From positions 1 through 44,924 of the forward strand of contig JAUVJK010000002.1 of assembly GCA_030592425.1 (NCBI GenBank): DNA of 44,924 bases. The letters are read 5' to 3'. This DNA is from Candidatus Moraniibacteriota bacterium (GTDB taxonomy: Bacteria > Patescibacteriota > Minisyncoccia > Moranbacterales > GCA-2747515). The notes beneath the pieces were generated by a model. It ran no database searches, was not told where the DNA came from, and saw nothing but the letters and a program-made list of their open reading frames with translations. This document shows, in pieces, positions 588 to 5,923 of the stretch. The stretch's first letter is position 1; each line of letters starts with the position of its first letter. Made by a program: the position numbers and the translations under genes.

Positions 588-773
588 CATACAGCTACAT
601 GAAAGATATTGACGTTCGCTTCTATTCACTGTATCTTTGATATAAAGTTTGCATTACAAGTTATTAGGCAGGCATGCTTAGCTCCCGCCAATGGGAAAGG
701 CGGGCAGGTTGTGGTCAAGGAGAATGATATCGATTTAATAACAGATTAGTTTTAAAATAAGTAGTTATATTAT

Positions 774-859: not shown

Positions 860-899
860 GCCGAGGTAAACTCCGCCTAGTGGTGGATGATTAGCAATA
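860..899 (+). pseudogene. Decayed 5' portion of a tRNA-Phe gene
   Basis: GCCGAGGTA (860-868) is identical to nt 1-9 of the intact tRNA-Phe 66 nt downstream. It is followed by ..CTC..AGTGGT.GA..AGCAA, which matches D-arm blocks with indels. Confidence 0.55.
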
Positions 900-1066: not shown

Positions 1067-1432
1067 GGGACCGTAGCTCAGCGGTTAGAGCGACCGGCTC
1101 GACAAGTTCATTCTAAATTGTGTTAAGAATTATGTAATTCAGTATGAATGTTCTTAGCAGGGCTGCCTGAAAAGTAATTTTCTGGTGAATATCTGTCAAA
1201 TTCGGGGAAATCTAAAATTTGATCGCATGATCAGATCAAGACAATCCCGAGCCAATCCATATATCCTACTGATGTGTGGCAGGTGTAGAGACTAGACGGC
1301 AGACACCCTTAATTCGTTCATCAAATGAAGGGTGAAGGGATAGTCCAGCTCACAAATTTGAAAAAAGTTGCGAAAGCAATAGTGAGACGCATAACCGGTT
1401 GGTCGCAGGTTCAAATCCTGCCGGTCCCACCA
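1067..1432 (+). tRNA. Intron-containing tRNA with CAT anticodon (elongator Met or lysidine-dependent Ile2); exons 1067-1099 and 1390-1432
   Basis: The joined exons give GGGACCGTAGCTCAGCGGTTAGAGCGACCGGCT|CATAACCGGTTGGTCGCAGGTTCAAATCCTGCCGGTCCCACCA, a perfect cloverleaf with loop CTCATAA. G1-C72 and the absence of a GGG/CCC anticodon stem argue against an initiator. CCA is encoded. Confidence 0.85.
1100..1389 (+). ncRNA. Group I intron (IC3-like) in the tRNA anticodon loop, no ORF
   Basis: Follows U1099 and ends in G1389. Core blocks are GTCAAATTCGGGGAAATCTAA (1195-1215), CCCGAGCCAATCC (1246-1258) and GGTGTAGAGACTAGACGGCA (1282-1301). GNRA-capped hairpin at 1166-1185. A GGCT guide at 1161-1164 can pair with exon GGCU. 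Confidence 0.85.
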
Positions 1433-3928: not shown

Positions 3929-4465
3929 ATGCGGATATCATTAATACTATTCCTCCTAGCTGTGGTTGTGATCTTCTGGGTTCAAACAGCTAGTGCTAGC
4001 GCAAATGAAAAAAACTACCAGTACGATAAAACTATATTACTCACAAAAAATACACAGATCCCTTCCTATTTTGCTTATGCGCAATATGAAGTCTCAGAAA
4101 AAACACTCCTTACAAAAATAATCCCCCAAGATACATATCTCCAGAAAGAAGAAATTAAAGAAGAAGCTGTATCTACTCAAAATTCATTTACAATTAACGC
4201 ATCCGCTTATACAGCATCTGCTGATGAATGTGGCAATAGTAAAGGTATCACTGCTTCTGGTGAACTAGTTCGTGCCAATTATACACTCGCATGTCCTCCA
4301 CAATATGCATTTGGCACACAAATCGAAATTGAAGGATATGGGACATTCACATGTAAAGATCGTGGTGGCGCAATAAAAAATAACCACTTTGATATTTATA
4401 TGGAAACAAAGGCCGAAGCATTTGCATTTGGACGACGCATGCTCACAGCATACGTTGTTAGCTAG
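3929..4465 (+). CDS. Secreted 3D-domain (MltA/YabE-type) cell-wall-binding or lytic protein
   Basis: Signal peptide MRISLILFLLAVVVIFWVQTASA. C-terminal ASAYTASADECGNSKGITASGE...CKDRGGAIKNNHFDIY matches the 3D domain pattern. Confidence 0.8.
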   Translation: MRISLILFLLAVVVIFWVQTASASANEKNYQYDKTILLTKNTQIPSYFAYAQYEVSEKTLLTKIIPQDTYLQKEEIKEEAVSTQNSFTINASAYTASADECGNSKGITASGELVRANYTLACPPQYAFGTQIEIEGYGTFTCKDRGGAIKNNHFDIYMETKAEAFAFGRRMLTAYVVS

Positions 4466-4469
4466 CACA

Positions 4470-4499
4470 AAAAACACTTCCCGTATGGGAAGTGTTTTT
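4470..4499. terminator. Bidirectional terminator hairpin
   Basis: AAAAA-CACTTCCC-GTAT-GGGAAGTG-TTTTT, between the + strand 3D gene and the - strand tRNA operon. Confidence 0.8.
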
Positions 4500-4504
4500 A
4501 TATG

Positions 4505-4589
4505 TGCCGCGGGTGGGACTCGAACCCACACGACGTTGTGCGTCAAGAGATTTTAAGTCTCTCGTGTCTACCAGTTCCACCACCGCGGC
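4505..4589 (-). tRNA. trnL: tRNA-Leu (anticodon TAA)
   Basis: Minus strand GCCGCGGTGGTGGAACTGGTAGACACGAGAGACTTAAAATCTCT...GTGGGTTCGAGTCCCACCCGCGGCA, with a long variable arm. Confidence 0.9.
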
Positions 4590-4613
4590 ATGTATTGCGT
4601 AAAATGAATATTG

Positions 4614-4684
4614 AGATCCGGAGCGGATTTGAACCGCTGTACAGGGTTTTGCAGACCCTTGCCTAACCGCTCGGCCACCGGACC
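4614..4684 (-). tRNA. trnC: tRNA-Cys (anticodon GCA)
   Basis: Minus strand GGTCCGGTGGCCGAGCGGTTAGGCAAGGGTCTGCAAAACCCTGTACAGCGGTTCAAATCCGCTCCGGATCT. The discriminator is U73, as expected for Cys. Confidence 0.9.
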
Positions 4685-4689
4685 ATAAT

Positions 4690-4935
4690 TCAATACTTCA
4701 ATCTTTTTAATACCATTTCTTTTTGCTGAGAATTCTTTTTTATTGCCATCTCTCTTGAGCGTGCCTGTGCTAATGTCGTATATGCTTCATAATATAAAAG
4801 ATCAAAAGGCTTATAGGGCTTTGTTGACTTTACCGTACCAGCGATATGCATACTGAATCGCTGTTGTAAATCTGATGTTGATCCAACATAAACCCAATTA
4901 CTACTTCTACTTTTTAGAAAATATACGTAATACAT
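4690..4935 (-). CDS. Stand-alone GIY-YIG domain protein (UPF0213/YhbQ-like), 81 aa
   Basis: MYYVYFLKS..NWVYVGSTSDLQQRFSMH..LLYYE..REMAIKK fits the GIY / YIG / R / E pattern. I prefer ATG 4935 (GGGAGG 13 nt upstream) over the track start at 4992, which lies inside tRNA-like sequence. The TGA stop is 5 nt before tRNA-Cys. Confidence 0.8.
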   Translation of the reverse strand: MYYVYFLKSRSSNWVYVGSTSDLQQRFSMHIAGTVKSTKPYKPFDLLYYEAYTTLAQARSREMAIKKNSQQKEMVLKRLKY

Positions 4936-4970
4936 ATAATTTGTTTTGCCTCCCTGTGGGAGATCACCCG

Positions 4971-5058
4971 AAGGGTGACAGACCCTTGACACGTCGTTCG
5001 CGAATCACGTGTATTGCCTAGCCGCTCCTCCCTACGGGAGACAGGCGGCCACCGGACC
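4971..5058 (-). pseudogene. tRNA-Cys-like 5' half with two hairpin insertions and no T arm
   Basis: The minus strand keeps GGTCCGGTGGCCG (13/13), AGCGGCTAGGCAA (12/13) and AGGGT-CTGTC-ACCCT in tRNA-Cys order. These are interrupted by CCTGTCTCCCGTAGGGAGG and ACACGTGATTCGCGAACGACGTGT. Confidence 0.7.
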
Positions 5059-5079
5059 ATCTTTATCACTACAAGATTT

Positions 5080-5108
5080 AGATTATCAAAATAGAGTCCT
5101 TACGTCAA
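5080..5108 (-). promoter_or_regulatory. Sigma70-like promoter TTGACG-17-TAATCT for the tRNA-like leader / GIY-YIG / tRNA-Cys / tRNA-Leu unit
   Basis: On the minus strand: TTGACG (5108-5103) and TAATCT (5085-5080), about 20 nt before the tRNA-like 5' end. Confidence 0.5.
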
Positions 5109-5236
5109 TCGCGACCATTGCTCATATACTCGTTTTATGCTAAAGTTTACGTGTCCTGACATGACTGATATTTATAGAAGTGCTGTATCATCACTCTTTT
5201 TGTACCTCAACAATTAAACATCAATAGGAGATTCAA

Positions 5237-5923
5237 ATGTCTACTCAAAGATCCCAAACAATTCTTCCAGTTAAACAACATGCCAAAAATGGAACTATTT
5301 CCCAACATATTTTAAAACTCCTTGGACTACGCCTCTGCGCAATGATATCAGTACGTGTTTTTAAAGAGAATTTTGTGAACAATTTAATTGTTTACGGCAT
5401 ATCAACTGACACATCCCTACGCTCAGAGAAAATTATTGACAATGGACGATCTGGTGACATCAAAACGATTGCACTGCTCTTGTATCCTGAGAATCCAAAT
5501 GATCCAAAAAGTAATAAGTCACGATTGCGGGATACTGGTTCACTGTATCGATGCGATATAAAAGTTCTTCCACAAAGAAATGCCCGCAAGTTAGCAGTGT
5601 CCATCGCAGCCAATCTTAAAAGAGGTTATCAAATTACAAAAAATGCCACTTTTGAGCTAACGCCACTAGCCTCAAAAAAGATGTCTAAGAACATTCCTCG
5701 CCAATCAGTCGATGTCCTAGTGAACGGCATTGAAATTCTCTTATCTTCTTTGAGCGATTGCCTCAAAAACATTCGGACCATTACAATCCAAAAAGATAAA
5801 GGATTTCTAACACAGGAAGATTCGTGCTCAGATATCCGTGAACAGTGCCTAATACTTGAACGTCTCAATATGCGAATTGATCAAAAGTGTCACGCATTAG
5901 ACATTCAGGGCATTCACTATTAG
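5237..5923 (+). CDS. Hypothetical basic cytoplasmic protein (228 aa)
   Basis: AGGAG 8 nt upstream of the ATG. No TM segment or signal peptide and no motif I recognise. Followed by its own terminator. Confidence 0.65.
   Translation: MSTQRSQTILPVKQHAKNGTISQHILKLLGLRLCAMISVRVFKENFVNNLIVYGISTDTSLRSEKIIDNGRSGDIKTIALLLYPENPNDPKSNKSRLRDTGSLYRCDIKVLPQRNARKLAVSIAANLKRGYQITKNATFELTPLASKKMSKNIPRQSVDVLVNGIEILLSSLSDCLKNIRTITIQKDKGFLTQEDSCSDIREQCLILERLNMRIDQKCHALDIQGIHY

Follow-up and report, generated by a model that had tools for sequence, protein, structure and literature searches.

A probable selfish element of tRNA genes, built around an 81-codon GIY-YIG gene, in Candidatus Moraniibacteriota and related bacteria

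The phage T4 protein SegB is a free-standing GIY-YIG homing endonuclease encoded in a phage tRNA gene cluster (PMC2330249). An arrangement that partly resembles it is described here from the window, i.e. the whole 44,924-nucleotide (nt) stretch analysed from a Candidatus Moraniibacteriota bacterium (GenBank assembly GCA_030592425.1, contig JAUVJK010000002.1, positions 1 to 44,924). On the minus strand of the window, an 81-codon open reading frame (ORF) for a GIY-YIG protein lies between a partial, hairpin-bearing copy of tRNA-Cys and the intact tRNA-Cys gene. The likeness to Seg lies in the GIY-YIG family, the stand-alone gene among tRNA genes and the presumed spread by break and repair into an allele that lacks the gene. 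Seg proteins, however, are about 200 amino acids (aa) long and have DNA-binding domains, whereas the window protein is an 81-aa catalytic domain of the UPF0213/Slx1 branch. In addition, Seg genes are intergenic, belong to phage and not to cellular chromosomes, and are not known to create or carry partial tRNA copies; hairpin modules are not described for them either.

Where integrase-bearing islands and prophages occupy tRNA genes, a complete copy of the tRNA and a partial one are left behind (PMC9897764). The elements described here share with them the direct repeat of tRNA sequence and the retention of a functional tRNA. Integrases are said, in work by Williams from 2002, to have sublocation preferences within tRNA genes; the sites found here coincide with the anticodon-loop, T-loop and 3′-end sublocations. 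The differences are a size of 0.3–0.45 kb as against 5–100 kb, the lack of an integrase and the frequent duplication of the 5′ part of the tRNA. The ORF is also always co-oriented with the tRNA and abuts it, and the repeats carry hairpin insertions.

Fungal mitochondrial GIY-YIG ORFs (e.g. in Allomyces atp6) bring a replacement gene end with them, and the displaced end remains as a pseudo-fragment. The common features are a nuclease ORF in an essential gene, a duplicated segment that keeps function and a displaced piece that decays. The fungal target is, however, protein-coding, the fusion is in frame and the setting is an organelle, and neither tRNA, hairpin modules nor co-transcription with tRNA processing is involved. 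REP (repetitive extragenic palindrome)/RAYT (REP-associated tyrosine transposase) and IS200/IS605-end systems use HUH (Y1) transposases, and their repeats are dispersed in intergenic DNA. They resemble the present loci in having short palindromes, with pairing conserved above sequence, and a small nuclease gene; here, in contrast, the modules keep to tRNA-derived fragments and a GIY-YIG enzyme accompanies them.

Insertions in the rRNA genes of candidate phyla radiation (CPR) bacteria, some with GIY-YIG proteins, are unlike group I and group II introns (PMC11270868); that paper does not mention tRNA genes. The host group, the nuclease superfamily and the choice of structured-RNA genes are the same as here, and these insertions may be the nearest relatives of the tRNA-linked elements. 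They lie within the functional rRNA gene itself, and its RNA either loses or tolerates them, whereas a second, intact tRNA is always present in the loci described below. In a literature search with incomplete coverage of journals, no description of GIY-YIG genes tied to tRNA genes in CPR bacteria was found, and no paper that gives the UPF0213/YhbQ-like family a function.

The window locus is probably one member of a family of minimal (0.3–0.45 kb) selfish elements of CPR/Patescibacteria that live in tRNA genes. From sequence comparison, the sole gene of the family encodes a stand-alone predicted nuclease of about 80 aa with a GIY-YIG domain, and the element appears to sit inside the tRNA transcription unit, in tRNA orientation and against an intact tRNA. 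The best reading of its class is a previously undescribed element family of the homing type, and a homing-type mechanism is the most likely one.

The window ORF matches the Pfam GIY-YIG family PF01541 over residues 1–71 with 59.4 bits (cut-off 22.6, E=4.3e-16). A family profile built from 32 members finds BH0048 (1zg2, E=1.9e-16) and EF2693 (1ywl, E=1.8e-12) in the PDB, and below these UPF0213 proteins rank SLX1, the I-TevI catalytic domain and UvrC. The AlphaFold2 model (pLDDT 95.4) shows the GIY-YIG topology beta-beta-alpha-beta-alpha-alpha, i.e. a three-stranded sheet with flanking helices (predicted elements E2–9, E15–20, H23–32, E44–52, H55–67 and H69–78). Foldseek matches the model to UPF0213, Slx1, the I-TevI catalytic domain and the UvrC N-terminal domain, and the query-normalised TM-score for the UPF0213/Slx1 proteins is 0.59–0.68. 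Residues Y3, Y5, Y16, G18, R26, H30 and E62 are invariant across the 32 aligned sequences. The NCBIfam model for group I intron endonucleases covers residues 4–39 only, at 20 bits against a cut-off of 56.

A word-indexed search gave 41 homologues. The superfamily comprises 9,921 cluster representatives at E<=1e-10, and the UPF0213/YhbQ-like family about 10^4 clusters at 50% identity. The protein appears to be a stand-alone UPF0213/Slx1-like predicted nuclease of a ‘KSTK’ subclade, named here after the motif G-x-V-K-S-T-K; classical UPF0213 members have GKGAKYT(R). UPF0213 proteins (BH0048, EF2693, the Escherichia coli YhbQ type) and Slx1 give the best sequence and fold matches, and share the single GIY-YIG domain and a similar size. 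Slx1 differs in requiring Slx4 and in having a RING domain. The classical UPF0213 member that was examined, P0031 (GKGAKYTR), belongs to an ordinary operon, and no tRNA lies within 1.5 kb of it. The tRNA trait therefore belongs to the G-x-V-K-S-T-K clade; it should be pointed out that this contrast is the authors' own, drawn with one classical member, and not a curated family criterion.

On the minus strand of the window, a promoter-like TTGACG (5108–5103) and, after a 17-nt spacer, TAATCT (5085–5080) can be read from the sequence; GATAAT (5087–5082) is an alternative to TAATCT. The sequence-only reading of this DNA, which preceded the present analysis, had named the TTGACG/TAATCT pair, and two other species keep it (TTGACG...GATAATCT in locus L040 and TTGACG...GATACTCT in locus L043). 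A consensus promoter scan did not flag the pair, though the comparison shows its conservation. The region 5108–5080 is probably the promoter of the whole unit of pseudo-tRNA, ORF, tRNA-Cys and tRNA-Leu. Alignment to tRNA-Cys defines a pseudo-tRNA-Cys stretch of 116 nt (5058–4943), which a 7-nt spacer separates from the start of the 81-codon ORF (4935–4690; ATG at 4935, stop codon TGA at 4692–4690). The intact tRNA-Cys(GCA) follows 5 nt after the stop codon (4684–4613; ARAGORN, and Rfam tRNA with 59.5 bits). The second tRNA of the operon, tRNA-Leu(UAA) (4589–4504; ARAGORN and Rfam), is also found 3′ of tRNA-Cys in L040 and L043. All these parts stand in the order originally proposed. A strong terminator-like hairpin with a 13-bp stem and a subsequent T run, at 4499–4470, closes the unit; a terminator scan did not report it, though L040 keeps it.

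An Rfam search over 4400–5300 at E<=10 returned no family except tRNA, and a group I intron, a T-box and a known tRNA-like element are thus ruled out. The group I intron had been considered for the anticodon loop in particular; Intron_gpI (RF00028) has no match in that region at that threshold, and the sequence 3′ of the window ORF is a complete tRNA, not a 3′ exon. A window-wide repeat search found no second copy of the ORF or the leader. No recombinase gene is present: the GIY-YIG gene is the only ORF between the repeats, and the neighbouring genes are housekeeping genes.

The pseudo-tRNA-Cys leader represents tRNA-Cys nt 1–40 with three hairpin insertions. It starts with nt 1–13 (GGTCCGGTGGCCG, 5058–5046), identical to the intact tRNA-Cys at 13/13 positions, and continues in the D loop with hairpin module 1, 19 nt in length (5045–5027; CCTGTCTCCCGTAGGGAGG, to be read as CCTGT-CTCCC-GTA-GGGAG-G). 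After nt 14–26 (AGCGGCTAGGCAA, 5026–5014; 12/13 identical) comes module 2, a 26-nt palindrome at the junction of D arm and anticodon stem (5013–4988; TACACGTGATTCGCGAACGACGTGTC), whose structure is ACACGT-GAT-TCGCGA-ACG-ACGTGT. The 5′ strand of the anticodon stem through the first anticodon base (AAGGGTCTG, 4987–4979) leads to module 3, a double hairpin between anticodon bases 1 and 2 (4978–4949). Its two parts are TCACCCTTCGGGTGA (TCACCC-TTC-GGGTGA, 4978–4964) and TCTCCCACAGGGAGG (TCTCCC-ACA-GGGAGG, 4963–4949). The copy then resumes and ends with CAAAAC (4948–4943), which consists of anticodon bases 2–3, the loop and the start of the 3′ stem strand; a similar resumption after the hairpin is seen in L011 and L038 (AAAACC / AAAAC). 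The only Shine-Dalgarno-like sequence, GGGAGG, lies within the second hairpin of module 3, 13 nt 5′ of the ATG.

The similarity of the leader to tRNA-Cys is real. In a gapped local alignment it scores 52.6, as against 19.0±3.7 for 2,000 dinucleotide shuffles of the leader (maximum 44, none at 52.6), and alignment with the seven other tRNAs of the window gives scores of 12–27. This is the shuffled control that the sequence-only reading had named, and its 13/13 and 12/13 matches both stand, as do its insertions of 19 and 26 nt; the insertions are, however, three in number and not two. Its ‘intact anticodon stem AGGGT/ACCCT’ with a shortened loop proved to be a chance hybrid of tRNA sequence and inserted hairpin. 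AGGGTCTG is tRNA up to the first anticodon base, and TCACCC is part of the inserted double hairpin. As a conserved feature the AGGGT/ACCCT stem was rejected, as its ACCC comes from the hairpin TCACCC-TTC-GGGTGA, which also adjoins unrelated tRNA-Ser anticodon stems. The copy had further been thought to end at nt 34, and the CAAAAC resumption extends it to nt 40. In a single-sequence fold, the stability of the leader is ordinary relative to shuffles (z=−0.9), and thus stability alone is no evidence of structure.

Related loci were gathered by contig look-up for homologues and by scans of genome and metagenome collections. The 23 loci considered count each distinct protein once, with the window included, and the relatives are 38–69% identical. 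Their hosts are CPR/Patescibacteria metagenome-assembled genomes labelled Moraniibacteriota, Saccharibacteria, Paceibacterota, Buchananbacteria and others, and one is labelled gammaproteobacterial. All sequences are metagenome assemblies; the array in L010 lies at a contig end and L011 has masked bases.

An intact tRNA gene on the same strand adjoins the ORF in 23/23 loci, a figure that holds for the ‘KSTK’ clade and not for all small GIY-YIG proteins. The distance between the two is usually 0–20 nt, or they overlap. The tRNA is downstream of the ORF in 17 loci, and 14 of these have it at −23 to +11 nt from the stop codon; in four loci (L014, L017, L018 and L023) the stop codon is within the D loop of the tRNA. 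The partners are tRNAs for Cys, Ser (GGA, TGA, GCT, CGA), Glu (TTC, CTC), Gln (CTG, TTG) and Trp. A significant partial copy of the cognate tRNA occurs on the ORF-distal flank in 17 of the 22 loci tested (z 3.7–19), and in L007/L010 and L034 the 3′ tRNA fragments are located beyond the tRNA instead. GIY-YIG ORFs beside tRNA genes with partial tRNA duplications, for which a search had been proposed in the sequence-only reading, were thus encountered many times. The position of the ORF 5′ of the tRNA, as seen in the window, applies to most loci; in other lineages the ORF is 3′ and the duplicated part is the 3′ end. No relative was found in viral contigs with the peptide pattern used (NW[VF]YVGST).

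Three layouts can be distinguished. Group A consists of the window, L011, L012, L038, L036 and L019, and has the order 5′ copy to nt 26–43, ORF, intact tRNA. A double hairpin lies at 26/27 or inside the anticodon, often with extra hairpins in the D loop. Group B (L013–L018, L021 and L023) has tRNA-Glu and tRNA-Gln as partners. Its order is nt 1–12, the hairpin CCTGYYTGC(n0-3)GCAGGCAGG and nt 13–26, with the ATG within 4–11 nt; the D-arm AGGA is at the Shine-Dalgarno position, 8–13 nt 5′ of the ATG. Group C (L020, L029, L030 and L037), with tRNA-Ser as partner, has an intact tRNA ending in CCA, a leader, the ORF and then a 14–18-nt repeat of the tRNA 3′ end. The leader is conserved, starts with GACTACG and contains one to four hairpins GTCTGGCARGCCAGAC. 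Two Group C units stand in tandem in L037, and L030 has a truncated ORF. In a neighbour-joining tree, proteins that share tRNA partner and layout group together. It had been considered whether the CCA shows that Group C elements supply the tRNA 3′ end; this is uninformative, as other tRNAs of the same contigs also encode CCA.

Several of these loci show additional peculiarities. L019 (1694–2352) contains three successive 5′ copies of tRNA-Glu(TTC), the first two with a different double hairpin inside each anticodon. The ORF comes after the first copy and some 120 nt of unidentifiable sequence after the second, and the intact gene forms the third; from its sequence the locus looks like a record of serial invasions. 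In L011 (2380–2800) the direct repeat that flanks the ORF begins before the tRNA-Ser(TGA) copy, with at least 57 nt of upstream sequence, and takes in the 5′ part of another long-arm tRNA. A run of masked N bases makes the structure of this locus only partly readable. After tRNA-Ser(GGA) in L010 (2840–3073), at least four units of the hairpin TCTCCC-GGA/GAA-GGGAGA plus a tRNA 3′ half are found. The units alternate the 3′ halves of two different long-arm tRNAs, and the array runs into the contig end. L007, another assembly of the same species, has one unit only, which is either real variation or an assembly effect.

The same locus can be followed in two sister lineages. L040 shares the gene order of the window (DsbA-like gene, 3D-domain gene, tRNAs, 234-aa gene, purH), with a purH protein 70% identical to that of the window. 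The same promoter is followed by a pseudo-copy of nt 1–25 without the D-loop hairpin, which is 25/26 identical to that of the window, while the neighbouring spacers no longer align. The hairpin at 26/27, GACCTGTCGC-TCGCGA-GCGACAGGTC, differs in all stem letters and is a palindrome around the same TCGCGA. It is followed by AAGGG, about 55 unalignable nt and AGATTGAAGTAT, the last 12 nt of the window ORF, which is fused directly to the intact tRNA-Cys. A tblastn search of L040 for protein-level ORF remnants found none, so that only the 12-nt tail can be recognised. Since this tail is still fused to tRNA-Cys, L040 shows loss of the ORF and not a leader independent of it. The sequence-only reading had taken the same leader without a GIY-YIG gene as evidence against itself; L040 is formally such a case, but the ORF tail points to loss.

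Downstream of tRNA-Cys, L040 has a 3′ pseudo-half from the variable region to the 3′ end, with the T-loop hairpin CCTGCCTGCCGGTAGGTAGG. A 17-nt repeat of the tRNA-Leu(UAA) 3′ end (GAGTCCCACCCGTTGTA) lies in L040 at 3940–4072 on the minus strand, about 110 nt downstream of tRNA-Leu; GC-rich, hairpin-like sequence precedes it, and no ORF is present. The second tRNA of the operon may thus once have been occupied too.

L043 encodes the closest non-conspecific relative, with 69% identity. Its order is promoter, 5′ pseudo-copy, intact tRNA-Cys, ORF, 3′ pseudo-copy and tRNA-Leu. The 5′ pseudo-copy has an identical TCACCCTTCGGGTGA and a D-loop hairpin, which is related to module 1 of the window, is in the same position and is absent from L040. 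The 3′ pseudo-copy extends from the anticodon stem to the 3′ end and carries hairpins at two places, a double one in the anticodon and a further one in the T loop. As judged by alignment, the ORF unit, with little beyond the ORF, is found on either side of the functional tRNA-Cys in sister lineages, and the dead copies that flank it in L043 resemble the halves of a resident gene that was disrupted. The proposal that a cassette had entered a resident tRNA-Cys and left a partial and a functional copy fits the comparison of the loci well and, broadly correct, extends to a whole family; the break is, however, at nt 40 and not in the anticodon loop. A split or permuted tRNA gene was also considered for L007/L010, L040 and L043 and rejected, as every locus has an intact copy and the sequences beside the pseudo-halves do not complement each other (by eye, no complementarity in L043 and L040).

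The hairpins are recurrent sequence modules and not random expansions. Four families can be defined. The first is TCNCCC-n3-GGGN'GA, where N and N' covary as A-T, T-A or G-C (stems TCACCC/GGGTGA, TCTCCC/GGGAGA and TCGCCC/GGGCGA). The second is CCTGYYTGC..GCAGGCAGG, the third is GTCTGGYARRCCAGAC with compensatory variants GGC/GCC and GGT/ACC, and the fourth is TCCGCC-n3-GGCGGA. A pattern search of 158.6 kb (the window and 26 loci) found 40 modules; all 40 are at most 452 nt from an intact tRNA at loci of the ORF family, and none is elsewhere. Insertion sites are the D loop (after nt 10–13), 22/23 or 26/27, the inside of the anticodon and the T loop, and no tRNA bases are lost. TCACCC-TTC-GGGTGA is identical in L043, and TCACCC-TAC-GGGTGA occurs in L011 and L012, where it adjoins different anticodon stems. 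The Group B hairpin is near-invariant in loci whose proteins are only 40–55% identical. By hand count, stem mismatches on the sense strand number about nine G.T versus two A.C, a bias that speaks for folding at the level of the transcript or the sense DNA strand.

A second Group B hairpin (CCTGCCTGCGCAGGCAGG) in L014 (2393–2410) abuts the 5′ end of an apparently intact tRNA-Ser(CGA) on the minus strand. The hairpin in the pseudo-tRNA-Glu is some 70 nt away, and no other module was seen outside a pseudo-tRNA fragment or an element leader.

A mechanism for a homing-type element can be outlined from these arrangements. The nuclease would break tRNA genes that lack the element, and the break would be repaired from an occupied allele, the tRNA-derived sequence on either side of the ORF serving as homology arms. 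Because the arms consist of tRNA sequence, they could be used in any genome with that tRNA. The repair product would be one complete tRNA plus a displaced fragment, and with one complete tRNA retained the host would survive. The ORF, without a recognisable promoter of its own, would be read from the tRNA promoter with the pseudo-tRNA as 5′ untranslated region, and RNase P or RNase Z would free the tRNA from the precursor. The co-orientation in 23/23 loci, the near-zero spacer, the D arm at the ribosome-binding site and the stop codons inside the tRNA all point to such expression and processing. The hairpins would act on the sense strand, either as an RNA leader that insulates or stabilises or by disrupting the target in the dead copy. 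A selfish element is further suggested by clades that track tRNA identity and layout, by loss, truncation, tandem duplication and relocation of the ORF, and by ORF-less relics.

In a variant of this scheme, which is possible but doubtful, the 81-aa nuclease would recognise the DNA structure of tRNA genes and mobilise its own gene together with hairpins. Its target would be a cloverleaf/cruciform or the displaced strand of an R-loop, cut at loops or junctions, and its cargo would be its own gene of about 0.3 kb with tRNA-derived arms, plus non-autonomous hairpin modules. Such structural guidance is made conceivable by three features: the protein resembles Slx1, it has no DNA-binding domain, and the modules sit at loops and junctions.

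A number of points weigh against a selfish element of the homing type. The intact tRNA keeps any target within the tRNA, which makes self-immunity hard to account for. All 81 aa make up the catalytic domain without a DNA-binding extension, i.e. without the domain from which GIY-YIG homing enzymes derive their long targets. No never-occupied tRNA-Cys allele was found, only loss and rearrangement: all seven conspecific contigs are occupied, the 228-aa neighbour has a conspecific homologue only and a purH homologue at 59% identity is without synteny. Over the first 34 nt, 4/4 tRNA-Cys substitutions between the window and L043 are mirrored in the pseudo-copies, a pattern for which selection on the leader is at least as good an explanation as gene conversion; the tRNA-derived segments between hairpins are only 6–20 nt long. 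The sample is biased, in that the loci were found via the peptide pattern and a few look-ups. The window ORF also differs from the seven conspecific contigs (L001–L006 and L009) by three non-synonymous and no synonymous changes, with only one or two differences in the rest of a region of about 780 nt. The window has S28 for R, I31 for N and L47 for V, and I31 hits the consensus HN pair; with these changes, including N31I, the window copy of the ORF may be decaying.

The mirrored substitutions lead to a different view, in which the hairpinned tRNA-like leader is a functional RNA under selection (a decoy, a processing switch or a translational regulator) and not a by-product of insertion. The 25/26 identity between the window and L040 next to unalignable spacers can be seen in the same light, as can the near-invariance of the Group B hairpin CCTGYYTGC..GCAGGCAGG at 40–55% protein identity. 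So can the skew of sense-strand mismatches to G.U (hand count) and the second hairpin of module 3, which sequesters GGGAGG before the ATG. In four loci, moreover, the ORF ends within the tRNA, which suggests competition between processing and translation. Yet the same modules occur in 3′ pseudo-halves past the ORF or the tRNA (L040, L043, L007 and L010), where they cannot serve as a leader, the copy is between 26 and 43 nt in extent where it is not of the 3′ end, and the leader outlasts the ORF in L040. The fold (z=−0.9) and Rfam give no sign of a structured RNA either. Leader function is thus an unlikely substitute for mobility, and it is compatible with a mobile origin, not exclusive of it. 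Alternatively, the modules themselves may be the primary mobile units, similar to REP sequences or to miniature inverted-repeat transposable elements, with the GIY-YIG protein as a mobiliser that recognises a DNA structure (hairpin, cruciform or cloverleaf), as RAYT is to REP, and the tRNA fragments as tolerated hit sites. The precise insertion without loss of tRNA bases at D loop, 26/27, anticodon and T loop is what such units would leave, and different module sequences occupy the same site in sister lineages. Several copies may be present per locus, also in tandem, one module abuts an otherwise intact tRNA-Ser in L014, none is found away from these loci in the 158.6 kb, and the closest structural relatives of the protein include Slx1, a cutter of branched DNA. 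However, no module is found in a non-tRNA context or dispersed as a repeat in the 45-kb window, insertion of DNA by a GIY-YIG enzyme has no known mechanism, and recombination with occupied alleles could equally carry modules; this view has a slim chance.

Two further explanations would take mobility away from the GIY-YIG gene. It could be an immobile housekeeping nuclease gene co-transcribed with tRNAs, with the fragments resulting from local tRNA duplication and decay. The UPF0213 family is indeed widespread (9,921 cluster representatives), and the tRNA-Cys insertion is common to lineages with 70% identical purH, which indicates long vertical inheritance. But immobility is very improbable: the relatives differ in their partner tRNA, with at least five amino acids represented, and 17 of the 22 loci tested have a partial copy of the cognate tRNA. 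The state of the ORF also varies: L040 has lost it, L030 has a truncated form, L037 a tandem duplicate, and in L043 it lies on the other side of the tRNA. The repeats could, on the other hand, be what is left of the attachment sites of integrase-type elements, or of elements that a host or phage recombinase moved in trans, with the GIY-YIG gene a passenger or leftover. A complete and a partial tRNA copy around an insert are the classic integrative signature (PMC9897764), and the 14–18-nt repeats of the tRNA 3′ end in Group C resemble attachment-site cores. This is nevertheless the least probable account of those considered. There is no recombinase gene and the insert is essentially an ORF of about 250 nt plus its leader; the ORF is of the same family every time and co-oriented with the tRNA in 23/23 loci; and hairpin modules interrupt the repeats. 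It is also the 5′ part of the tRNA that is duplicated in most loci: direct repeats of the 3′ part are confined to the Group C relatives and L043, and the window repeat is 5′ nt 1–40.

The tRNA cluster of the window contains further tRNA fragments, two of which have hairpins. On the plus strand, a degenerate copy of the 3′ half of tRNA-Phe (GAAATTGTGACGGGAAATTCATTCCCTCGGCA, 1001–1032) stands directly after tRNA-Phe. It aligns to tRNA-Phe nt 32–72 with z=4.1, a score reached by 1/500 shuffles, is without an ORF and looks like a relic of the same kind of event. At 672–703 (plus strand), GCATGCTTAGCTC is 12/13 identical to nt 1–13 of tRNA-Val(TAC), which lies 70 nt downstream. The hairpin CCGCC-AATGGGAAA-GGCGG follows directly, again without an ORF, so that the layout of a hairpin after nt 13 is that of the tRNA-Cys leader; a gapped-alignment test of this segment was not significant (z=1.3), and neighbouring tRNAs confound the score. 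A further possible relic, whose significance was judged roughly, is found at 860–887 (plus strand). Here GCCGAGGTA, 38 nt upstream of tRNA-Phe, is 9/9 identical to the tRNA-Phe start and is followed by the hairpin TCCGCC-TAGT-GGTGGA, which has one G.T wobble. Of a different nature is a tRNA with anticodon CAT at 1069–1432 (plus strand), which has a group I intron in the anticodon loop and was missed by ARAGORN. The intron matches RF00028 at 1142–1370 with 83.9 bits, and the exons, placed by eye, are at about 1069–1103 and 1393–1432.

If the favoured reading of a selfish element is true, one clade of the UPF0213/YhbQ-like proteins acquires a concrete biology, that of selfish elements resident in tRNA genes. 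At about 0.3 kb and with one protein of 81 aa, these would be among the smallest autonomous mobile units, and the question is raised of how a bare catalytic domain locates tRNA genes. There is also a link to the unexplained non-intron GIY-YIG insertions in CPR rRNA genes. Were recognition guided by structure, such elements would form a new class of their own, specific to tRNA genes; this would provide a role for part of UPF0213 and perhaps account for the GIY-YIG insertions in CPR rRNA genes. Where the stop codon falls within the tRNA, the layout suggests that maturation of the tRNA and translation of the nuclease inherently compete. The tRNA operons of CPR bacteria would then have been invaded repeatedly and be littered with pseudo-tRNA halves and hairpin modules, which bears on tRNA annotation and on tRNA gene evolution in reduced genomes.

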